IMG/VR virus record: IMGVR_UViG_2681813004_000014
Location: 1 to 15,890 of that record
Source of the DNA: a virus
Lineage: Duplodnaviria; Heunggongvirae; Uroviricota; Caudoviricetes
Reading direction: 5' to 3' (one strand)
DNA: 15,890 nt
Shown here: one piece after another, positions 981 to 15,890 of the stretch
Position numbering within the stretch: the first letter of the stretch is position 1
Layout of the letters: the number at the start of each line of letters is the position of its first letter
Notes under the pieces: generated by a model
Databases searched by the model: none
Told to the model about the DNA's origin: nothing
What the model saw: only the letters and a program-made list of their open reading frames with translations
Made by a program: the position numbers and the translations under genes

Positions 981-1315
981 TTTTCTGTACCCACCTTTGC
1001 CAGAATTTCCAGCCGGGTTCTTTTCGCATCAGGTAAGGGGATCCCGATGATATTAAGCGTGCTCCCGGCAAAAGCGCCGGTAAGCACTTTCAGGCGACTG
1101 GCGGCGGATATGTCGCCACGATAGCGAACCCATACCCGAATCGTTGCAGGTGCGGTTTCTGCGCCTGCGGTCAGTAATTCCCGTCCGCTGATCCCCTTGA
1201 CCTCTGCCCAGATGGTTTCCCCTTCCGTCCATATCTGCTGGATCGCACCTGACGGCAGGCGCTGTGTGGTAAATGTCATAATCGTCACCCGGTCCCGCAT
1301 CTTTCCGGCTATCAT
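977..1315 (-). CDS. Head closure / head-tail adaptor protein (gp7 / SPP1 gp16-like)
   Basis: 112 aa with MRDRVTI...IWAEVKGISGRE...IRVWVRYRGDI pattern; 4-bp overlap with portal stop. Confidence 0.65.
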   Translation of the reverse strand: MIAGKMRDRVTIMTFTTQRLPSGAIQQIWTEGETIWAEVKGISGRELLTAGAETAPATIRVWVRYRGDISAASRLKVLTGAFAGSTLNIIGIPLPDAKRTRLEILAKVGTEK

Positions 1316-2529
1316 TCGTCACCGCCCTTACTGTTCTTGCTGATTGTCACTTCCTGCTTCCATGCCTGGCTGAACTCGTCACCACCTTCACGCGGCGGCA
1401 TTCCCTCACGCTCACGGGCTTCGTTCGGATTGATGATCCCGTTCTTAATCCCTTTCTCATACGTGGCGTAACGTTCGGTAGGGGTGGCGCGTAATAAATC
1501 GGCTGAATCAAACTCAACCAGATAACGGGTTCCAGGCACGGGAGAAGCCACCAGCAAAGCGGCCTTGATTTGCTGTTCGAAGTTCGCCAACCAAGGACGC
1601 ATTGTCATGGTCAGAAACGCGCGGCTTGCCTCACTGAAATTGCTGTAGGTGCTGTTGCTGTATTCCTGCAAAAAAATCGGCGAGACGTTGAACATTCGGG
1701 CGATGTCTTCAATGGTAAAGCGACGGGAGGCCAGCCATTCAGCATCCTGATTACTCATGCCCAGCTGCTGATAGCTCATACCCCCTTCAAGGATGGGCGT
1801 TTTTCCGGCGTTTCTGGCCCCTTTGTAGCGTTCCAGTGCGGCTAATGCCTGTTTGCCCTTCACGCCGTCCAGCCATTCGCCTGACGTGATAACCCCTGCC
1901 GCCATCATGCCATCACGCATCACGCTCGCGCCGTGGCGTTGTTGGGCCAGCCCAAGCCCCAGCGATTCGCGGCAGATGGTTACAGGTGAGCGCCCCATAA
2001 AGCCGTCATCCGTGGAGTAACGAAGGTGGAGAACCTCCCACGGTAAATAGTTGCGGGTGTTTCCGGTGTAGGCGTCAGTGATGCAGTAGCGCCAGTTATG
2101 CTCACCTGTCTGCTCCACGTTCACCGACTGCGGCGGGTAAGGATGTAAAGCCACCGGAAAACCATCACGCCCCCACTGAATCACCGCATAAGCATTACCG
2201 TTTAACAGGCAGTGGCGGATCATCATTCGCTTAAACTGGTAGGGGGTTTGCCATGCGTTCGGGCGCTCGTTGAGGATGTGATCGACCGGATGAGAATCAA
2301 GCCACTCGCGGGCCTCCTTCCCCTTCTCATTGCGTACCAGGTACAGGTAACACGGCATGGTAGCCACCGCCTCAGAGATGACCGTCACGGCGTTCATGAC
2401 GGCGGGCAGTGATTCCGCTGTCCCCGATGATACGTACTCACCCGCCCCCGTGTTCGATGTGCCCGCCAGCGCCATAAATTCATCAAGCGTCATGCTGCGC
2501 TGCTCTTTTTTTCTTCTGAAAAGCCACAT
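1312..2529 (-). CDS. Portal protein, HK97 family (copy 1)
   Basis: 405 aa; near-identical to ORF 3552..4760 except the C-terminal tail; immediately upstream of prohead protease. Confidence 0.85.
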   Translation of the reverse strand: MWLFRRKKEQRSMTLDEFMALAGTSNTGAGEYVSSGTAESLPAVMNAVTVISEAVATMPCYLYLVRNEKGKEAREWLDSHPVDHILNERPNAWQTPYQFKRMMIRHCLLNGNAYAVIQWGRDGFPVALHPYPPQSVNVEQTGEHNWRYCITDAYTGNTRNYLPWEVLHLRYSTDDGFMGRSPVTICRESLGLGLAQQRHGASVMRDGMMAAGVITSGEWLDGVKGKQALAALERYKGARNAGKTPILEGGMSYQQLGMSNQDAEWLASRRFTIEDIARMFNVSPIFLQEYSNSTYSNFSEASRAFLTMTMRPWLANFEQQIKAALLVASPVPGTRYLVEFDSADLLRATPTERYATYEKGIKNGIINPNEAREREGMPPREGGDEFSQAWKQEVTISKNSKGGDE

Positions 2530-2530
2530 A

Positions 2531-3103
2531 TCACACCCCCGCTAAATCCACCCACCAGCGGCGATTATCCGCACGCGGCATTTTTTCGGGGTGCTGCTCA
2601 TACAGGGAACGGCGGGCCAGCTCCACGCCGGAATCGGGGTAAGCCGGTACCGATGTAACGGTAATTTCGTACAGTTCCGCCACCAGCACGGTACGAACGC
2701 ATGGATCTGTTGTGGTATCCCATACATCCTTACGGGAGCGAAAGCCAAAGCTCATGCCGGATATATCACCGCGTTTAACCAGTTCGATAACGTCGCGCCC
2801 TGTACTGGTATCCGGTGGGGTCAGTTCAAAGCGTAACCCTGTTTCGTCCTCTTCCAGTTTCAGCGTGCCGGAACGGGTGCGCCCCAGTAACATGCTGTGG
2901 TCATGCTCATACAGGCCGCGAACGTCATTACCCGCCGCAAGCCATTCAGTAAACGCCCCCCGCTGGAATTTTTCGTAAAACTCACCCCATAACAGTTCTG
3001 AAAGCTTATCCCAGCGAACAACGTAGCCCGTCAGCGTACCGGCTCCGCTCGTGGTGATTTCCGATGACCGGATTTCCATACTCTTCATAATTTTTTCACC
3101 CAT
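2531..3103 (-). CDS. Prohead protease, HK97 family (copy 1)
   Basis: 190 aa with DHSMLLGRTRSGTLKL and GMSFGF motifs; identical in protein sequence to ORF 4762..5334. Confidence 0.85.
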   Translation of the reverse strand: MGEKIMKSMEIRSSEITTSGAGTLTGYVVRWDKLSELLWGEFYEKFQRGAFTEWLAAGNDVRGLYEHDHSMLLGRTRSGTLKLEEDETGLRFELTPPDTSTGRDVIELVKRGDISGMSFGFRSRKDVWDTTTDPCVRTVLVAELYEITVTSVPAYPDSGVELARRSLYEQHPEKMPRADNRRWWVDLAGV

Positions 3104-3113
3104 AAAACACTAA

Positions 3114-3131
3114 AGGGGCTTTTAAGCCCCT
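3114..3131 (-). terminator. Hairpin 3' of the capsid-derived ORF (copy 1 of duplicated unit)
   Basis: Inverted repeat aggggct/agcccct with 4-nt loop followed on minus strand by a T-rich run; possible partial terminator or mRNA stabiliser. Confidence 0.3.
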
Positions 3132-3142
3132 TCTGTATGCTG

Positions 3143-3559
3143 TTAATCGTCGTCCTGTGGCAGTTCCAGAATCTTGATCGCGTTCGAATCCACCACGCCA
3201 CCGCCTAAATATTTCTGCGTGAAAATTTTGATGAAGCCCGGCTCTGTGATGTTGTCCGGTCTGGTGCGAACACCTGTTTCGTGATCAACAATGTAGTAAC
3301 CGCGTTTGAAGTCACCCAGGGCAATAACGTTATCAGGCATAAACTCCAGATATTCGACCGGAAGGCCCAGCAACGTATCAGGATCACCCGCCTGTAAACG
3401 GTCGCGCCAGATGTAATCACCGTTCGCGTTCTTCACCTTCTGAAGTTTTGCCGATGACGCGTTTCTTGTATACATTTTCAGAAGTTCGCCTTCTCCGGAA
3501 AAGTCATCAAGGCGAAGATGTGCCCTGACTTCATCAGGTGTAATTTTTTCTTCACTCAT
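3143..3559 (-). pseudogene. Chimeric ORF: gp6-like connector N-terminus (~35 aa) fused in frame to the last ~103 aa of the major capsid protein
   Basis: C-terminal part is identical to the end of capsid ORF 5374..6576; N-terminus MSEEKITPDEVRAHLRLDD resembles the start of connector ORF 684..980; Shine-Dalgarno-like aaggtg sits 6 nt upstream of ATG at 3559. Track ORF extends to 3640 but that region overlaps portal copy 2. Confidence 0.55.
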
Positions 3560-4760
3560 CTTTTTCACCTTTAATTTCCACCGTCTGCTTCCATGCCTGG
3601 CTGAATTCGTCGCCACCTTCACGCGGCGGCATCCCCTCACGTTCGCGGGCTTCGTTCGGATTCATGATCCCGTTCTTAATCCCTTTCTCATACGTGGCGT
3701 AACGTTCGGTAGGGGTGGCGCGTAATAAATCGGCTGAATCAAACTCAACCAGATAACGGGTACCAGGTACGGGAGAAGCCACCAGCAAAGCAGCCTTGAT
3801 TTGCTGTTCGAAGTTCGCCAGCCACGGGCGCATTGTCATGGTCAGAAACGCGCGGCTTGCCTCACTGAAATTGCTGTAGGTGCTGTTGCTGTATTCCTGC
3901 AAAAAAATCGGCGAGACGTTGAACATTCGGGCGATGTCTTCAATGGTAAAGCGACGGGAGGCCAGCCATTCAGCATCCTGATTACTCATGCCCAGCTGCT
4001 GATAGCTCATACCCCCTTCAAGGATGGGCGTTTTTCCGGCGTTTCTGGCCCCTTTGTAGCGTTCCAGTGCGGCTAATGCCTGTTTGCCCTTCACGCCGTC
4101 CAGCCATTCGCCTGACGTGATAACCCCTGCCGCCATCATGCCATCACGCATCACGCTCGCGCCGTGGCGTTGTTGGGCCAGCCCAAGCCCCAGCGATTCG
4201 CGGCAGATGGTTACAGGTGAGCGCCCCATAAAGCCGTCATCCGTGGAGTAACGAAGGTGGAGAACCTCCCACGGTAAATAGTTGCGGGTGTTTCCGGTGT
4301 AGGCGTCAGTGATGCAGTAGCGCCAGTTATGCTCACCTGTCTGCTCCACGTTCACCGACTGCGGCGGGTAAGGATGTAAAGCCACCGGAAAACCATCACG
4401 CCCCCACTGAATCACCGCATAAGCATTACCGTTTAACAGGCAGTGGCGGATCATCATTCGCTTAAACTGGTAGGGGGTTTGCCATGCGTTCGGGCGCTCG
4501 TTGAGGATGTGATCGACCGGATGAGAATCAAGCCACTCGCGGGCCTCCTTCCCCTTCTCATTGCGTACCAGGTACAGGTAACACGGCATGGTAGCCACCG
4601 CCTCAGAGATGACCGTCACGGCGTTCATGACGGCGGGCAGTGATTCCGCTGTCCCCGATGATACGTACTCACCCGCCCCCGTGTTCGATGTGCCCGCCAG
4701 CGCCATAAATTCATCAAGCGTCATGCTGCGCTGCTCTTTTTTTCTTCTGAAAAGCCACAT
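3552..4760 (-). CDS. Portal protein, HK97 family (copy 2)
   Basis: 402 aa; same as copy 1 except a different C-terminal tail (…KQTVEIKGEKDE). Confidence 0.85.
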   Translation of the reverse strand: MWLFRRKKEQRSMTLDEFMALAGTSNTGAGEYVSSGTAESLPAVMNAVTVISEAVATMPCYLYLVRNEKGKEAREWLDSHPVDHILNERPNAWQTPYQFKRMMIRHCLLNGNAYAVIQWGRDGFPVALHPYPPQSVNVEQTGEHNWRYCITDAYTGNTRNYLPWEVLHLRYSTDDGFMGRSPVTICRESLGLGLAQQRHGASVMRDGMMAAGVITSGEWLDGVKGKQALAALERYKGARNAGKTPILEGGMSYQQLGMSNQDAEWLASRRFTIEDIARMFNVSPIFLQEYSNSTYSNFSEASRAFLTMTMRPWLANFEQQIKAALLVASPVPGTRYLVEFDSADLLRATPTERYATYEKGIKNGIMNPNEAREREGMPPREGGDEFSQAWKQTVEIKGEKDE

Positions 4761-4761
4761 A

Positions 4762-5334
4762 TCACACCCCCGCTAAATCCACCCACCAGCGGCGATTATC
4801 CGCACGCGGCATTTTTTCGGGGTGCTGCTCATACAGGGAACGGCGGGCCAGCTCCACGCCGGAATCGGGGTAAGCCGGTACCGATGTAACGGTAATTTCG
4901 TACAGTTCCGCCACCAGCACGGTACGAACGCATGGATCTGTTGTGGTATCCCATACATCCTTACGGGAGCGAAAGCCAAAGCTCATGCCGGATATATCAC
5001 CGCGTTTAACCAGTTCGATAACGTCGCGCCCTGTACTGGTATCCGGTGGGGTCAGTTCAAAGCGTAACCCTGTTTCGTCCTCTTCCAGTTTCAGCGTGCC
5101 GGAACGGGTGCGCCCCAGTAACATGCTGTGGTCATGCTCATACAGGCCGCGAACGTCATTACCCGCCGCAAGCCATTCAGTAAACGCCCCCCGCTGGAAT
5201 TTTTCGTAAAACTCACCCCATAACAGTTCTGAAAGCTTATCCCAGCGAACAACGTAGCCCGTCAGCGTACCGGCTCCGCTCGTGGTGATTTCCGATGACC
5301 GGATTTCCATACTCTTCATAATTTTTTCACCCAT
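4762..5334 (-). CDS. Prohead protease, HK97 family (copy 2)
   Basis: Protein identical to copy 1. Confidence 0.85.
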   Translation of the reverse strand: MGEKIMKSMEIRSSEITTSGAGTLTGYVVRWDKLSELLWGEFYEKFQRGAFTEWLAAGNDVRGLYEHDHSMLLGRTRSGTLKLEEDETGLRFELTPPDTSTGRDVIELVKRGDISGMSFGFRSRKDVWDTTTDPCVRTVLVAELYEITVTSVPAYPDSGVELARRSLYEQHPEKMPRADNRRWWVDLAGV

Positions 5335-5344
5335 AAAACACTAA

Positions 5345-5362
5345 AGGGGCTTTTAAGCCCCT
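5345..5362 (-). terminator. Hairpin 3' of the major capsid gene (copy 2 of duplicated unit)
   Basis: Same inverted repeat as 3114..3131, offset by 2231 bp. Confidence 0.3.
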
Positions 5363-5373
5363 TCTGTATGCTG

Positions 5374-6576
5374 TTAATCGTCGTCCTGTGGCAGTTCCAG
5401 AATCTTGATCGCGTTCGAATCCACCACGCCACCGCCTAAATATTTCTGCGTGAAAATTTTGATGAAGCCCGGCTCTGTGATGTTGTCCGGTCTGGTGCGA
5501 ACACCTGTTTCGTGATCAACAATGTAGTAACCGCGTTTGAAGTCACCCAGGGCAATAACGTTATCAGGCATAAACTCCAGATATTCGACCGGAAGGCCCA
5601 GCAACGTATCAGGATCACCCGCCTGTAAACGGTCGCGCCAGATGTAATCACCGTTCGCGTTCTTCACCTTCTGAAGTTTTGCCGCCGTTGTGGAGTTAAC
5701 CACCCATACCGCGTTCTTGCGGTATTTTTTACGCAATGCAAATTTCAGGTCGATCAGCGGGTCCGCAGATGTCCACGCCAGACCGTGAGCGGGCTTGATA
5801 ACCTGCAACGTTCCGAAGTCGCGTTCTTTGTCGCTCTTCTCTGCACGGGGGACGGATAAAAAGCCTTTTGCTTTTTTGTCACCGTCGCCCACAACCAGAT
5901 CGCTTTCTTCGGTTTCCGTGAAGGTGTCGCCAATCTCGCCCGTCAGCCATGAAAGGATGTCCACATCGGAAAAATCCACGATTTCCTGTGTGGTGCGCGG
6001 GTACGCATAGACCGGATACAGCTTAATGCTCACCTCGTTAATCTTCGGGGTGCTGGTCTGTTCGCGTGCCTTACCCTCTTCACCGTGGTTAACGGTCGCA
6101 CCGCCAGCGGAAACAAGCTGCTTAAACTCGTTGCTGCTGATTTTCTTCACGGTACAGATGCGGCGCATGGTGGATTCATCCGCCAGTATTCGCATGATTT
6201 CGGTGTTCAGTTCGGGGATAACGGTATAACCACCATCAGCGGCAACGCCTGTACTTAATGCGCGGGTTTCACCTGTCAGAATGTAGTTGCGTAGTTCTGC
6301 GGGGTCAGTGGTCTGACTGCTTTTACCTGGCTTGCTGCGCTCTTCGTCTGCAATGGCTTCAAGGCGGGAAATGTCTTTATCGAGGGATTCAGCTTTAGCG
6401 CGTAATTCGTCAAATTTTGCGCCCTCAGCATCGTTAAGACTGCGGTTTTCTTTTTCCGCGTTCTCCAGCATGTCGCGCATCTGATTTTTAATGGCGGTTT
6501 TCTGCTGGCGTAATTCGATTATTCTCGGCATAAAAAAAAGTCCTGGGGTTAAGTAAGGAACTCCAGGACGCGACAA
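5374..6576 (-). CDS. Major capsid protein, HK97 family, with N-terminal coiled-coil delta domain
   Basis: 400 aa; N-terminal heptad-rich segment (IIELRQQKTAIKNQMRDMLENAEKE…) then a capsid-like body. Track start at 6576 is a TTG; an ATG at 6531 (MPRIIELRQQ) is an alternative start. Confidence 0.85.
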   Translation of the reverse strand: MSRPGVPYLTPGLFFMPRIIELRQQKTAIKNQMRDMLENAEKENRSLNDAEGAKFDELRAKAESLDKDISRLEAIADEERSKPGKSSQTTDPAELRNYILTGETRALSTGVAADGGYTVIPELNTEIMRILADESTMRRICTVKKISSNEFKQLVSAGGATVNHGEEGKAREQTSTPKINEVSIKLYPVYAYPRTTQEIVDFSDVDILSWLTGEIGDTFTETEESDLVVGDGDKKAKGFLSVPRAEKSDKERDFGTLQVIKPAHGLAWTSADPLIDLKFALRKKYRKNAVWVVNSTTAAKLQKVKNANGDYIWRDRLQAGDPDTLLGLPVEYLEFMPDNVIALGDFKRGYYIVDHETGVRTRPDNITEPGFIKIFTQKYLGGGVVDSNAIKILELPQDDD

Positions 6577-7509: not shown

Positions 7510-7543
7510 GCTGTACCTCACTGCTTAAAACGGTATCCCGTCC

Positions 7544-7815
7544 CCGTACGGATCATCGTGCTGGCCTGTCTGTTGTTTTGCCCTGTTCAGTGCGTCAGTA
7601 GCCTGGCCCTGCTGGCCTTTTTTGCCGCCCGGTCGCACTGTCCGCGCACTGATTACGCTGTCTGCGATGACCTGCCAGCCCGTACGGATCATCGTGCTGG
7701 CCTGTCTGTTGTTTTGCCCTGTTCAGTGCGTCAGTGGCCTGGCCCTGTTGACCTTTTTTGCCGCCCGGTCGCGCCGTTCGCGCACTGATTACGCTGTCTG
7801 CGATAACCTGCCAGC
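7544..7815. repeat. Tandem 136 bp duplication (2 copies, a few mismatches) at the 3' end of ssb
   Basis: 7544..7679 and 7680..7815 align at a 136 bp offset with a handful of substitutions. Confidence 0.85.
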
Positions 7816-8086: not shown

Positions 8087-8334
8087 GCTGTCTGCTCTCC
8101 GGTTTTAACGTTGATGGTTGTTACCTGTTCCGCTCCGGCAATCTCCCGTTGTGTCAGCGTGGCAAAGTTTGCCGCCGCTGTGGTCATGAATGCGCTAATC
8201 AGTTCGGGATGCGCTTTCGCGTATCCTTCTCCGGCGTGGCGGTCTATCGTTCTGATTGCCACCTTTAAGGCGTGCTCTGTCATGTCTAACGCTTTATATT
8301 TTGGCGCTGTCTTATCTCTGGTTTTTCTGTTCAT
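8083..8334 (-). CDS. Hypothetical protein (start uncertain: 8364, 8334 or 8283)
   Basis: Track ORF 8083..8364; the 5' part lies inside the iteron array, so a later start is more plausible. Stop overlaps ssb start. Confidence 0.4.
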   Translation of the reverse strand: MNRKTRDKTAPKYKALDMTEHALKVAIRTIDRHAGEGYAKAHPELISAFMTTAAANFATLTQREIAGAEQVTTINVKTGEQTA

Positions 8335-8550
8335 TCCCCACCACTCCCCACTTTTGCTCCCCACTTTTTAAATTCCCCACTTGCTCCCCACCTCGTTTTT
8401 TGAGTGAATGTAATGCTTTGTTTTTCATTGCGTTTTTTACTCCCCACTTTTTTGGATGTATACAGGTGGGAAAGTGGGGAATTATGTTTCAATTTTGTTA
8501 AATTCCCCACTCTCCCCACTTTTACTACCCACTTTTTACAGTGGGTAAAC
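8334..8550. repeat. Iteron array, putative replication origin
   Basis: At least 9 direct copies of (t)tccccac(tttt), inverted copies near 8463-8482, an AT-rich spacer around 8394-8440, and a palindrome tacccac…gtgggta at 8526-8546; directly 3' of the replication gene. Confidence 0.6.
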
Positions 8551-9942
8551 ATCATCCCCATCGACACAAATCACGCCGTCTTTTTCCAGCTTGGACAGCC
8601 AGCGCCGGAAGTGCTTCATCTCATACCCCAGCTTTTTCATATCGTCGCGGAGAAGGGCGATAGTGCATGGCTCTTTGTGTGCCGTCCGCGTTCTGATGCA
8701 CTGCCATAGCGCGGCGTGATTCTCCGATTTGTTGCCTGCTTCCTCGATGCGCTCCAGTTCAGCAGGGGCGCGGGGAACGTCAATCACCACCATAGACACA
8801 ATCTCTTCCCCATCGGTATCGGTAAACACCTCCACGCTTTTAAGGTCGTATGCACTCTCTTTTGGCTCCTCTGCGTCCTTCATCTTCGTACACGCCGCCA
8901 CCAGTGCTGTAACGTCTGAATTTTCCCGGCTGATTCGGTACTCTGCATCAAGCGCGGCACGGAATGCGCTGGAACCACGCGCCCCCTTTGTTTCATCCTT
9001 GCCGGAATGGTGAACCACCAGCACCGTGGCCCCTGTGGCCTGCTTTATCGCGTCACACCCCTGGATAAATGCGCCCATATCACGGGAATCATTTTCATCA
9101 TTCCCACCAAAGCAACGGGCCAGTGTGTCGATCACAATCAGCCGCACATTTTCGCCCGTTCTGCTCTTAACAAGTCCGGCAGTCCTGATAACCTGCTCCA
9201 CATAGTCAGGCGATGCAGGGAAAACAGGCGCGTTAATGATGCACAAATCTGTAACCACCTTGTCGTGGGTTATCTCCCACGCCTTAACGCGGCGTTTTAC
9301 GCCCATACTGCCTTCGCCAGCGATATAGATAACCGCGCCCTTACTCACCCTGCGGCCTCCCCATGCCATACCTGTGGCAACATGGCACGACCAGGAAATG
9401 GCGAGGAACGATTTATAAGAACCGCTGGCCCCGTAGGTGCTGCATAATGACTCAGCCGGAATAAGCCCCTTAATGACGTAGCTTTGCTGCGCGTCGAATC
9501 CCTCAGAACCCCATGAGATGGGAAGCGTGATTTTTCTCTTTCCGCCATTCATGACCAGGCTTTCCCCTCTCTCCCATGTTTCCCGTAGTCGTGGTAGCTG
9601 GTCGCTCCAGTCCTCAAGCAGTTCGAAATTTTCAGAAAGTAGCCGCGCCTCCTGGACTCCGGCGATCGCCAGTTTTGTGGCAATGGTCAGCATCTGCATA
9701 TCGTCCAGGTTTCCGGCGCGTATGACCTTTACCCTGTATCGTCCTTCATCAACAATCTGTAAGTTGTCCAGTTCGCTTAACTGATAACGGCCCAGGTAAA
9801 CCGGAGGGATGGGATCGCCTGCTTTTTTGGCCTGTGCAATCATGTAATGTTCTGCAAAGGAGTGAGCATTATCACCCGCAAAAATAACCGCCTCAGTGTG
9901 TTTATCTTTCGGTAACAGTTTTACGTTCGGTGCAAGTTTCAT
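8536..9942 (-). CDS. Replication protein with RecA/RepA-like P-loop ATPase domain (putative primase-helicase)
   Basis: 468 aa; Walker A-like YGASGSYKSF, Walker B-like RLIVIDTLARCFGGNDEND, then VLVVHHSGKD…RGSSA, as in RepA/AAA_25-type replicative ATPases. Confidence 0.75.
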   Translation of the reverse strand: MKLAPNVKLLPKDKHTEAVIFAGDNAHSFAEHYMIAQAKKAGDPIPPVYLGRYQLSELDNLQIVDEGRYRVKVIRAGNLDDMQMLTIATKLAIAGVQEARLLSENFELLEDWSDQLPRLRETWERGESLVMNGGKRKITLPISWGSEGFDAQQSYVIKGLIPAESLCSTYGASGSYKSFLAISWSCHVATGMAWGGRRVSKGAVIYIAGEGSMGVKRRVKAWEITHDKVVTDLCIINAPVFPASPDYVEQVIRTAGLVKSRTGENVRLIVIDTLARCFGGNDENDSRDMGAFIQGCDAIKQATGATVLVVHHSGKDETKGARGSSAFRAALDAEYRISRENSDVTALVAACTKMKDAEEPKESAYDLKSVEVFTDTDGEEIVSMVVIDVPRAPAELERIEEAGNKSENHAALWQCIRTRTAHKEPCTIALLRDDMKKLGYEMKHFRRWLSKLEKDGVICVDGDDVYPL

Positions 9943-10466: not shown

Positions 10467-11021
10467 TTAATCCCCGTCCGTCGTTTTTCTTAAAACAGTT
10501 TCCGTTACGAAATCAGCATAGTTAGCGGCGATATCAAGAATATTTAGCCCTGTATCCCTGTGCTCATCAGTGCAAAGAAAGAAAAAAGCCACCCGCATAA
10601 TTTCAGATATTGACGAAAGCGCATCAGCCGCATTATCAGGAACGCCGGAAAATTCCTGTTTCAGGGAATTAAAACGATCATCACGCATAACCCCCCCATT
10701 TTCACAATCAGCAATCAGGATGGCTTTAGCCTCATTCAGCGCCATATCAGCGGTTAGCTGTGCGTAGGCCAGCGAATGCGGGATTATTGCCCCTGTATAT
10801 TCCGGCTCTCTGGTAATGTGTTTTTCTGCGGTTGCTGCCGTGCATGAAATATCAATCAGCGCGTGCATTAGCGTTATGATGGCTTCGGCGGCTGCGTCCG
10901 GACGGATCTCTCTGGTAATGTGTTTTTCTGCGGTTGCTGCCGTGCATGAAATATCAATCAGCGCGTGCATTAGCGTTATGATGGCTTCGGCGGCTGCGTC
11001 CGGACGGATGTTATTGCACAT
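10467..11021 (-). CDS. Hypothetical protein (184 aa) with internal duplicated 34 aa segment
   Basis: Contains IRPDAAAEAIITLMHALIDISCTAATAEKHITRE twice in tandem. Confidence 0.5.
   Translation of the reverse strand: MCNNIRPDAAAEAIITLMHALIDISCTAATAEKHITREIRPDAAAEAIITLMHALIDISCTAATAEKHITREPEYTGAIIPHSLAYAQLTADMALNEAKAILIADCENGGVMRDDRFNSLKQEFSGVPDNAADALSSISEIMRVAFFFLCTDEHRDTGLNILDIAANYADFVTETVLRKTTDGD
10806..11009. repeat. Perfect tandem 102 bp duplication, in frame
   Basis: 10806..10907 is identical to 10908..11009. Confidence 0.85.
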
Positions 11022-12528: not shown

Positions 12529-13244
12529 TTTTTGCGTTTTTGTTGAGATTCACGCCCCAAATACTTTTGCCATGTCTGCCAATGTGTTTTGGGAAATTCT
12601 ATCCCTCTGGATGCAGCTATAGAATCAATTAAATCTGCTATTTTAGGTAATGATTCCGTGTCTAGGTCTACATCACCCATTTCTGGAATAAGTTTAATTA
12701 AAGAGTAAATAACCTCATTCCTTTTTGCTGCTCTTTTGGGGTTATCTTCTGTAAGATTACGAAAACTACCTTCATCTTTTACATTATTTAAATCATCTGC
12801 CATCACACATAAATAATCAACATCTATATCAAATGGCTTGAGATTTTCCCCTTCTGGAGTTATTTCTAATCCACCGCCAAGTCTATCAGGGTAAAAATAT
12901 AATGTTGGTGAGCTTATGATGTTATTATGTTTAAACTCAATATCAGAGAACGCCTTTTTGTTTACATAGAAAAAACCAGCAATAAAATTTGCTATATATA
13001 ATCTATCATCTATTTCCTTCTCTAAATTAATTGTTTTGCCGTCCTGGAATATTAGTCCATTCCGTTTATTATCTTTAAATCCCTCAAGAAAATAAACCTC
13101 ACAGTTCCCAACACTATGCTCAGGAATAAATACAGAAATATCAATGGCACCTGTACTAGCGAAATGATAGAGATCCCTTATTGTACATCCTAACTTTTCT
13201 GCCGCTTCAGGTAACGGATAATAGAGTCTTTTAGGTAATTTCAT
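12525..13244 (-). CDS. Low-GC cargo protein of unknown function, possible N-terminal HTH
   Basis: 239 aa; markedly AT-rich compared with flanking int and alpA; N-terminus LPEAAEKLGCTIRDLYHFASTGAI resembles excisionase/MerR-type HTH; 4-bp overlap with int stop. Confidence 0.7.
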   Translation of the reverse strand: MKLPKRLYYPLPEAAEKLGCTIRDLYHFASTGAIDISVFIPEHSVGNCEVYFLEGFKDNKRNGLIFQDGKTINLEKEIDDRLYIANFIAGFFYVNKKAFSDIEFKHNNIISSPTLYFYPDRLGGGLEITPEGENLKPFDIDVDYLCVMADDLNNVKDEGSFRNLTEDNPKRAAKRNEVIYSLIKLIPEMGDVDLDTESLPKIADLIDSIAASRGIEFPKTHWQTWQKYLGRESQQKRKK

Positions 13245-14461
13245 TTAGCCACCTTCAGCATAACAATATTTTCATGATTTCCAGCCAGCACATCAAGACG
13301 CTCAACCCACAGATTCAACGCGTCCCGCTTTGCCTGTAAATAGCGTGAATGGTTATAGGTTTTTTGCTGACCGGGCATCTGATGCGCTGTGATGTGCTCC
13401 ACGATATGCGGATCGACACCTAAATCGTTCAGCATCGTTGTAAACGTGTGGCGAAAGTCATGCAGCGTCCAGTGTTCCTGGTTAAGCCGCTTATGCGCAT
13501 TTCGCCCATATTGCGCTACCGTGGTATCTTTTTTCAGTTCTCCGAGTAATAACCCTGTATGCCGGTTCTTCTCCACCAGCTTCTGAATGAACGGCAAAAT
13601 GCCATCGGGGATTGGCCTGAATATCGTTACCTTCGTTTTGCTATGCTCTTTTGGCACTGTCCACAACATTTCTTTCAGATCCCATTCTTTGATCTCTGAA
13701 AGTCTGACCTCTGCCGTTCTGCACCCGAACACAATCAGCAAGCGCATTAACGCGCTGTAGTAAGGCGCGAACACATCACCATCGATAGCGCGTAAAATTT
13801 CCTTTAATTCGCTGTTACTGTGCACCCTCTCGCGAATTTCTGCTCTCTTACCCACATCGCTGACGATCAAATCGTCCAGGGCATTACTGAACGCGTAGCG
13901 CCTCCTGCGGCAGAACTTTAGCGCCTGTTTGCAGGTTTGCATGACGTGCCCTGCTGCTACTGGTGCTTTTTTTCGTACACGGTCAAAACATGCGATCCAC
14001 TGCCTTGTATCGCATTTATCAAGAGGAATTGCCCCTATATGGCAAATGATGTGCTTATCCATACGTTGCACCAGCTTTATGTAGTCTTTGCGGTTACCCT
14101 TCGCATATTCATCCAGCCAGTAGTTAATCGCCTCCTTCACCGTAACGGGTTTTAGCGCTTCCTGTACTGTGGCGCACAACTCATAACGGGGGTTTTTACC
14201 CTCAGCCAGCCATGCCCGGCACTGTGCGCGTTTTTCCCTTGCAGCTTTCAGCGACAATTCAGGGTAAGCCCCCAGCTTTAACCGCTCTGCGGCAACCTCA
14301 CGGCCTCCCGTTCGGTACCGGAAATACCAGGTTAATTTGCCGCCCTTTGAGTGTTTAATCTCCAGCCCGCCCCCGTCGGAGTAAAAACGCTCTTTTTCTG
14401 CCTGGACAGCCGCCAATTTTTTTAACGTCGAATCGCTCAGTTTGTTTAGTGCTTTTCCCAC
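13241..14461 (-). CDS. int: Tyrosine integrase, P4-like
   Basis: 406 aa with catalytic-region pattern …LHDFRHTFTTMLNDLGVDPHIVEHITAHQ…YNHSRY; located at the island edge. Confidence 0.9.
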   Translation of the reverse strand: MGKALNKLSDSTLKKLAAVQAEKERFYSDGGGLEIKHSKGGKLTWYFRYRTGGREVAAERLKLGAYPELSLKAAREKRAQCRAWLAEGKNPRYELCATVQEALKPVTVKEAINYWLDEYAKGNRKDYIKLVQRMDKHIICHIGAIPLDKCDTRQWIACFDRVRKKAPVAAGHVMQTCKQALKFCRRRRYAFSNALDDLIVSDVGKRAEIRERVHSNSELKEILRAIDGDVFAPYYSALMRLLIVFGCRTAEVRLSEIKEWDLKEMLWTVPKEHSKTKVTIFRPIPDGILPFIQKLVEKNRHTGLLLGELKKDTTVAQYGRNAHKRLNQEHWTLHDFRHTFTTMLNDLGVDPHIVEHITAHQMPGQQKTYNHSRYLQAKRDALNLWVERLDVLAGNHENIVMLKVAK

Positions 14462-14489: not shown

Positions 14490-14640
14490 CTCAAAAAACT
14501 GACCACACAACTGACCACACATTTCGTTGAAGCTCTACGAACAACGACGAACAATAACAAACAAGAAAACGAAACATTCCATTTAATATCAAATACATAT
14601 CCAAACAACCACGAACAACCCCGAACCACAAAAAACACTA
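14490..14640. promoter_or_regulatory. A/C-rich repeat region upstream of int
   Basis: Direct repeat aactgaccacac x2 (14497-14520), multiple gaacaa units, and the 15-mer AACAACCACGAACAA (14604-14618) that also occurs at 6758-6772. Confidence 0.3.
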
Positions 14641-14790
14641 AATGAGAAAATACGGGTATTTCTCAGCCTTCACGCAGAAGGGCACCCCGAGTCGTTTGGT
14701 TGCGATGATAAATCGCAGAGGAGGATGGTAATGTCCAGCGCACGCGTTGTAAACGAGGAAAAACGGCAGTATTACAATCGCGTTAATAAA

Positions 14791-15063
14791 TTATTTGATA
14801 TATGAATCCAGCACCTTCAGAACGACATCCAGATCTTCTTCACGTTTTAGCTCATCCCCCTGGTGAACGATGTGTTCCGTCAGATGACCTTTAATCACTT
14901 CCCGCATCAGACCGTTTACCGCGCCACGGATAGCAGCAATCTGTTGTAAAACTGCAGCGCATTCGTGCGGCTCGTCGAGCATTTTCTTGAGCGCCACGAC
15001 CTGGCCCTGAATCTTACTGGCACGCGCTTTCAGTTTCTGTTTATCACGGATTGTATGAGACAT
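14791..15063 (-). CDS. rcnR: Ni/Co-responsive transcriptional repressor RcnR
   Basis: 90 aa [56 protein letters not shown]… recognised as RcnR; divergent from rcnA. Confidence 0.9.
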
Positions 15064-15111
15064 GGCAACACCTGGTTAACAAGAATATGAAAAATCATAG
15101 CACTATTAATC

Positions 15112-15146
15112 TACTGGGGGGTAGTATCAGGTACTGGGGGGGAGTA
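15112..15146. promoter_or_regulatory. RcnR operator sites in the rcnR-rcnA intergenic region
   Basis: TACT-G6-T-AGTA at 15112-15126 and TACT-G7-AGTA at 15132-15146, matching the established RcnR recognition motif. Confidence 0.75.
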
Positions 15147-15183
15147 GAATCAGATTGCCGAATTAATACTAAGAATTATTATC

Positions 15184-15864
15184 ATGACCGAATTTACAAC
15201 TCTTCTTCAGCAAGGAAACGCCTGGTTCTTCATCCCCAGCGCCATCTTACTTGGTGCGCTTCATGGCCTGGAACCAGGGCACTCAAAAACGATGATGGCG
15301 GCGTTTATCATCGCCATCAAAGGCACCATTAAACAAGCGGTGATGCTCGGACTGGCAGCAACTATTTCGCATACCGCAGTGGTCTGGTTAATTGCCTTTG
15401 GCGGGATGGTGATCAGTAAGCGCTTTACTGCTCAATCAGCAGAACCGTGGCTCCAGCTGATTTCCGCAGTGATCATTATTAGCACCGCGTTCTGGATGTT
15501 CTGGCGTACCTGGCGCGGCGAACGCAACTGGCTGGAGAATATGCACGGGCATGATTATGAGCATCATCATCACGATCACGAAGATCACCACGACCATGGA
15601 CATCATCACCATCACGAACATGGCGAGTATCAGGATGCCCATGCACGAGCCCATGCCAATGATATTAAACGACGCTTTGATGGTAGAGAGGTCACCAACT
15701 GGCAAATTTTGTTATTTGGCTTAACAGGTGGTCTTATCCCCTGTCCGGCAGCAATTACCGTGCTGTTGATTTGCATTCAGTTGAAAGCCCTGACACTGGG
15801 CGCAACACTGGTCGTCAGTTTCAGCATTGGCCTGGCGGGTAATGCTGCCAACTTACTGATTTAG
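15184..15864 (+). pseudogene. rcnA: Nickel/cobalt efflux protein RcnA, interrupted by IS1
   Basis: N-terminus and His-rich loop (HGHDYEHHHHDHEDHHDHGHHHHHEHGEYQDAH) match RcnA; after …SFSIGLA the reading frame runs into IS1 terminal sequence and stops early (226 aa, shorter than intact RcnA). Confidence 0.85.
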
Positions 15865-15890
15865 TGTATGATGGTGTTTTTGAGGTGCTC
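15839..15890 (+). mobile_element. IS1 terminal inverted repeat and adjacent sequence (partial, runs off window)
   Basis: ggtaatgctgccaacttactgatttagtgtatgatggtgtttttgaggtgctc matches the IS1 end as I recall it, with one variant base. Confidence 0.85.

Follow-up and report, generated by a model that had tools for sequence, protein, structure and literature searches.

Probable interruption of the nickel/cobalt efflux gene rcnA by IS1 at the end of an Escherichia coli draft contig

The window, by which is meant the whole stretch of 15,890 nucleotides analyzed here, carries at its right edge a gene for the nickel/cobalt exporter RcnA that stops short of its normal end. As judged from the sequence, it is highly probable that an IS1 element lies inside chromosomal rcnA after codon 218, that the truncated RcnA is likely nonfunctional, and that the contig breaks at this repeat, which together form the best explanation of the locus. 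This is an ordinary strain-specific gene knockout, which also explains why the contig stops where it does. IS1, the rcnR-rcnAB locus, gene inactivation by insertion sequences, and contig breaks at IS copies are all textbook matters, and the allele is a new instance of a known phenomenon.

The stretch from 15184 to 15890 contains a single long forward ORF (15184..15864, + strand), which encodes 226 aa. The Pfam NicO profile (PF03824) matches this ORF with an E value of 5.8e-54 and a score of 183.8 bits (cut-off, 27.7), and the match covers profile positions 1 to 232 of 287, with positions 233 to 287 being absent from the fusion ORF. RcnA is the same protein as YohM, a member of the NicO family (PF03824). 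Nucleotide alignment with the intact rcnA genes of E. coli AREA_497 and MB10 places the break point unambiguously between positions 15837 and 15838. The last native base, 15837, is the third base of codon 218 (GCG, Ala218), and codons 1 to 218 agree base for base with those of the intact 274-aa rcnA of MB10. Past this base, the native gene of MB10 continues as TTAACGCTGGTC... (Leu219 onward), and the window continues as GGTAATGCTGCCAACTTACTGATTTAGTG..., so that the product is a fusion of RcnA residues 1 to 218 with the octapeptide GNAANLLI, in which Gly219 already comes from IS1. The earlier note had followed RcnA through about residue 219 and then into an IS1 terminal inverted repeat and a stop. 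Its identification of the protein and its coordinates were right, and the residue count was one too high, the alignment giving 218 native residues; the entry into IS1 was borne out by a 53/53 match to an IS1A copy and by the GNAANLLI tail with its stop codon. The histidine-rich loop is retained (residues ~120 to 160, HGHDYEHHHHDHEDHHDHGHHHHHEHGEYQDAHARAH). Measured against a complete RcnA, which has 274 aa and C-terminal hydrophobic segments, the gene in the window is a disrupted member of the family, i.e., a pseudogene. Megablast placed the stretch on the annotated rcnR-rcnA locus, with 80% or more of the query at a single place, in 5,354 of the 5,426 complete E. coli genomes, and the part of rcnA present in the window is identical or nearly so to that of other E. 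coli.

The 53 nt that follow the break point (15838 to 15890) are the first 53 nt of a 768-bp IS1A copy in E. coli WCHEC050613, with 0 mismatches, and they agree with an IS1B copy at 52 of 53 positions. The WCHEC050613 element is annotated as an "IS1-like element IS1A family transposase" with a programmed frameshift, with a CDS that begins at element position 56; the contig reaches element position 53, which is 2 bases short of the transposase CDS start in this matching copy. Elements of the IS1 family have a terminal inverted repeat of ~23 bp that starts GGT(A/G)ATG...CCAACTTA(C/T)TGAT, and a repeat of this kind, GGTAATGCTGCCAACTTACTGAT, occupies 15838 to 15860. Of the 5,426 complete E. coli genomes, 4,958 contain the 53-mer, which occurs at 72,347 places in all (median, 10 per genome) and is thus a multicopy repeat in the host species; at least 180 records of it fall in the identity band of ≥99%, and the ten matches listed are all exact. 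This frequency and identity are far beyond chance, and 15838 to 15890 is the left end of IS1. The element is oriented such that its transposase genes (insA/insB) would read in the direction of rcnA. A complete IS1 has ~768 bp, encodes InsA and, via a programmed −1 frameshift, InsAB', and ends in a matching right inverted repeat; its target duplication usually has 9 bp. The window resembles known cases of IS1 (IS1A/IS1B of E. coli and Shigella) in the terminal 53 nt, in the interruption of a coding sequence with an in-frame stop, and in the break of a draft assembly, and it shows no difference in kind from them; it displays the left end alone. The features of the window are listed in Table 1.

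Table 1. Positions in the window of the rcn locus, the IS1 end, and two genes of the neighboring island
Feature	Position	Strand	Basis
Island RepA/AAA_25 helicase	8536..9942	-	
Island integrase	13241..14461	-	
rcnR, intact gene for the 90-aa repressor that responds to Ni(II) and Co(II)	14791..15063	-	Pfam Trns_repr_metal (PF02583), E=3.5e-21
RcnR operator site 1, TACTGGGGGGTAGTA (TACT-G6-N-AGTA)	15112..15126	.	Regular-expression scan
RcnR operator site 2, TACTGGGGGGGAGTA (TACT-G6-N-AGTA)	15132..15146	.	Regular-expression scan
rcnA 5' part, codons 1-218 of 274	15184..15837	+	Alignment, Pfam NicO, E. coli annotation as rcnA
GGCCTGGCG, 9 bp expected to be duplicated beyond IS1 if the insertion is simple	15829..15837	.	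Prediction from the usual IS1 duplication
IS1-encoded tail of the fusion ORF, GGT AAT GCT GCC AAC TTA CTG ATT TAG (GNAANLLI + stop)	15838..15864	+	
IS1 left end, terminal inverted repeat (~15838-15860) plus 30 more bases	15838..15890	+	IS1A identity

By analogy with E. coli KH_005, a simple insertion is the most likely anatomy. IS1, or at least its left end, would have inserted into chromosomal rcnA directly after codon 218 and in the same direction as the gene, and the full 768-bp element would be followed by a 9-bp duplication, the rcnA 3' remnant, and, directly after it, rcnB. The right junction of such an insertion is predicted to read ...CATTACC-GGCCTGGCG-TTAACGCTGGTC... and to run into rcnB, the right end of IS1 being followed by GGCCTGGCGTTAACGCTGGTC. 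In this predicted remnant, read in the rcnA frame, the IS1 right end has a TAA 18 nt before the duplication and an in-frame start codon comes only late, so no gene would be called on the rcnA 3' remnant. In KH_005 (NZ_CM174518.1), a clean 768-bp IS1 (2755 to 3522 of the region) lies at the extreme 3' end of rcnA, flanked by the 9-bp duplication GGCTTCATG and with rcnB downstream, and it is the only other IS1 inside rcnA among the complete E. coli genomes examined. The two cases share the gene, the GGTAATG... end, and the orientation of the element; they differ in that the KH_005 element sits at the extreme 3' end of the gene, where PGAP still annotates a near-full-length rcnA of 279 codons.

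A larger event marked by the IS1 end, such as an IS1-mediated adjacent deletion or inversion by which rcnB and the 3' end of rcnA were removed or relocated, or an IS1-bounded composite or resistance module with its edge here, is unlikely. It would also inactivate rcnA, but without a target duplication or an adjacent remnant. IS1 copies that lack a duplication elsewhere make an IS1-associated rearrangement a live alternative, since two of the three full IS1 copies inspected in other strains (those of AREA_497 and WCHEC050613, the latter being the IS1A copy matched above) have none, and in AREA_497, beyond the IS1B copy that lies close downstream of rcnA, IS26 and aph(6)-Id/aph(3'')-Ib take the place of rcnB. 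In addition, the right junction predicted for a simple insertion (IS1 right end, GGCCTGGCG, and continuation of rcnA) was found in none of the collections searched: among the GTDB representative genomes there were 26 matches, all in unrelated taxa and attributable to chance, and the same scan of the JGI metagenomes gave one match, on a GC-rich unrelated contig, which is likewise attributable to chance. These collections are, however, unlikely to hold this strain, so the null result weighs little; the KH_005 element is a simple insertion with its 9-bp duplication and rcnB directly downstream, and IS1 transposition most often results in simple insertion.

Across the 5,426 complete genomes, IS1 occurs near the rcnA 3' end at other positions in two, AREA_497 and KH_005. 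In AREA_497, an IS1B (2849 to 3616 of the region)-IS26-strAB resistance segment lies immediately downstream of rcnA and replaces rcnB. An IS5-family transposase under the rcnA match in ETEC4085 represents an unrelated event, and a different RcnA truncation, a 157-aa protein named Shigella flexneri by NCBI, is present on 78 contigs. The rcnA::IS1 allele of the window is not described in the literature searched for rcnA, IS1, pseudogene, and Shigella.

The control region of the locus is complete. The divergent repressor gene and the two operator sites in the intergenic region (Table 1) are those of a CsoR/RcnR-family system, both sites matching the published RcnR operator motif TACT-G6-N-AGTA (PMC7055735). 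The RcnR protein is identical to that of AREA_497 and S19-141, annotated as WP_000019944.1, and the rcnR-rcnA intergenic region is identical at 120 of 120 positions to those of AREA_497, KH_005, and S19-141; with these identities and the two motif matches, the proposal that rcnR and its G-tract operators are intact holds. The locus thus resembles rcnR-rcnAB of E. coli K-12 in the divergent rcnR, the 120-bp intergenic region, the two operators, and the histidine-rich loop of rcnA. It differs from the K-12 locus in that rcnA breaks off after the first 218 of its 274 codons, the contig does not include rcnB, and a satellite-phage-like island lies between rcnR and thiM.

RcnA is described as the one Ni/Co efflux pump known in E. 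coli, and disruption of its gene raises sensitivity to nickel and cobalt, an rcnA::uidA-kan mutant being more sensitive to both metals (PMC4124493). The rcnAB genes are transcribed from an RcnR-controlled bidirectional promoter (PMC4124493; PMC7055735). From the intact promoter of the window, a 226-aa product would now be made in which the histidine-rich loop and the hydrophobic segments at the N-terminal end are preserved and which, being cut in its second-to-last hydrophobic segment, would most likely be a nonfunctional exporter. In a Kyte-Doolittle scan, the hydrophobic segments of intact RcnA lie at residues ~52 to 77, 88 to 107, 175 to 215, 200 to 235, and 254 to 273, and the fusion product ends inside the segment at ~200 to 235 and lacks that at 254 to 273. 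The loss of the last hydrophobic segment, of part of the second-to-last, and of NicO positions 233 to 287 makes it very likely that the gene is a null allele, and impaired Ni/Co efflux can soundly be predicted from it. IS1 insertions are polar on downstream genes, and rcnB, which shares its promoter with rcnA, would probably be poorly expressed through this polarity. The strain is predicted to build up Ni(II) and Co(II) and to show greater sensitivity to the two metals.

That the fusion carrying RcnA residues 1 to 218 still exports metal and the insertion is phenotypically silent is very unlikely. The conserved stretches GLEPGHSK and GLIPCPAA are kept along with the histidine-rich loop, and the promoter and the regulator are intact, all of which would suit a working protein; against this, 56 of the 274 residues of RcnA are gone, including one whole hydrophobic segment, the preceding segment is cut midway, the end of the NicO profile is missing, and membrane transporters would be expected seldom to tolerate the loss of a terminal helix. 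A second rcnA copy may be present elsewhere in the genome, the view here being that of one contig.

An exact-protein look-up identified the window as the entire 15,890-bp draft contig AOTC01000266.1 of GCA_001447405.1, an E. coli assembly. It had been suggested that the window edge is a contig break at a repeat, and this is confirmed by a window that spans all of this contig and ends inside IS1: since IS1 is multicopy, a short-read assembly broke inside it, and the contig and the window both stop at 15890. The same junction and the same 226-aa fusion ORF are present on a 30.9-kb Logan contig from run SRR21284099, which likewise terminates in IS1, 28 nt in. On the Logan contig, thiM lies directly beside rcnR, with no island, and one SNP separates the two contigs over the shared 1.2 kb. 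This is an A/T SNP at 14771, in the spacer that separates rcnR from the riboswitch remnant, and it is the sole difference of the window from both the Logan contig and MB10 over 14650 to 15837. The SNP and the presence or absence of the island indicate that the two rcnA::IS1 genomes are close relatives and not identical. Among ~15 billion proteins, the fusion protein is found on three to four contigs; the junction does not occur in any of the 5,426 complete E. coli genomes, and a scan of the JGI metagenomes for the left junction gave 0 matches. It is scarcely credible that the junction arose in assembly, as a chimeric join at the contig end, and that rcnA is intact in the real genome, for although the junction lies only 53 nt from the end of the draft contig and the same contig holds a suspicious tandem duplication of 2.2 kb, of which a 1.6-kb core is perfectly identical, the junction and fusion ORF recur identically in an independently assembled contig from another run with a different left context, the fusion protein is on record from several contigs, De Bruijn assemblers make no joins without spanning reads, and the same junction in two independent assemblies rules out a chimeric contig end.

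The 10.65 kb of the Logan contig up to the junction show 100.0% identity (rounded) to complete genomes that include MB10, ET151, PSS-11, and D72, and in MB10, the one of these inspected, rcnA is an intact 274-codon gene. The rarity of the junction and this flank identity indicate that the insertion is recent and lineage restricted, in an otherwise ordinary E. coli background. A Shigella origin, which was considered for the IS1 load, is not supported: the flanks are 100.0% identical (rounded) to those of ordinary E. coli isolates, and there is no sign of Shigella-type decay, the ten neighboring genes of the Logan contig being called at lengths that match the intact MB10 genes.

Because the allele occurs in at least two nonidentical genomes, with and without the island and one SNP apart, it could mark a circulating E. 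coli clone. It is quite improbable that rcnA::IS1 represents a circulating clone selected for the loss of Ni/Co efflux, for example, to keep nickel for hydrogenases in a nickel-poor niche, or that the IS1 is one boundary of a larger IS1-mediated rearrangement or resistance module at the rcn-yeh locus instead of a neutral insertion private to the strain. For the annotation of GCA_001447405.1, rcnA is to be marked as a pseudogene, a mild Ni/Co-sensitive phenotype is predicted, and the contig break is explained. The allele is a further case in which IS1, as it routinely does in E. coli, causes gene loss and fragments a short-read assembly; the finding has little significance beyond strain annotation and makes no open question testable, and the side observations on the neighboring island are more curious than the rcnA insertion itself.

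The window from position 1 to ~14663 is a capsid-forming, PICI-like satellite island, the genes of which are all on the minus strand. In addition to the integrase and the helicase (Table 1), it encodes an AlpA-like regulator, an SSB, PerC, a major capsid protein, an HK97 protease, a portal protein, head closure/connector proteins, and an HNH protein. The left end of the contig, which maps to position ~4001 of the S19-141 region, lies just short of the terS/terL genes carried by related islands. The thiM-rcnR site is also where E. coli S19-141 carries a related island, and O157:H7 strain MB41-1 has a related island beside the rcn locus with ~2.5 kb of extra genes between the integrase and rcnR.

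Within 14594 to 14699 of the window, the attachment core, ATACGGGTATTTCT (14650 to 14663), lies inside the thiM TPP riboswitch, and the island therefore splits the aptamer. In the island-free MB10, the core occurs once (10967 of the region), within a PGAP-annotated riboswitch, and in S19-141 it occurs as a direct repeat (791 and 15983 of the region) flanking a 15.2-kb island; it is absent from the region examined in MB41-1. Of the aptamer, the 5' half alone remains in the window, beside rcnR, and it scores 20.3 bits with the Rfam TPP model, whose gathering score is 54.3. The 3' half lies with thiMD at the far end of the island and scores 34.6 bits in S19-141, where PGAP annotates no riboswitch; overall, the halves score 20 to 35 bits, below the gathering score.

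A tandem duplication of 2,231 bp within the island (1312 to 3542 versus 3543 to 5773) covers a capsid C-terminal fragment, the prohead protease, and the portal gene. Its core of ~1.6 kb is 100% identical and its edges are 79 to 97% identical, with the protease copies agreeing at 190 of 190 aa and the portal copies at 393 of 396. In S19-141 and MB41-1, the duplicated unit occurs just once in the homologous island. A perfect repeat of 1.6 kb in a short-read contig points either to two related islands having been misassembled or to a duplication that is real. Shorter repeats are also present. A 136-nt tandem duplication (7543 to 7814) that is 95% identical overlaps an SSB-like ORF, a second tandem duplication, of 102 nt, is perfect (10806 to 11009), and a pair of CCCCAC-rich 46-nt repeats (8325 to 8538), with a spacing of 168 nt, follows closely on the 3' end of the RepA helicase gene. 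The CCCCAC-rich pair may represent iterons of a replication origin.
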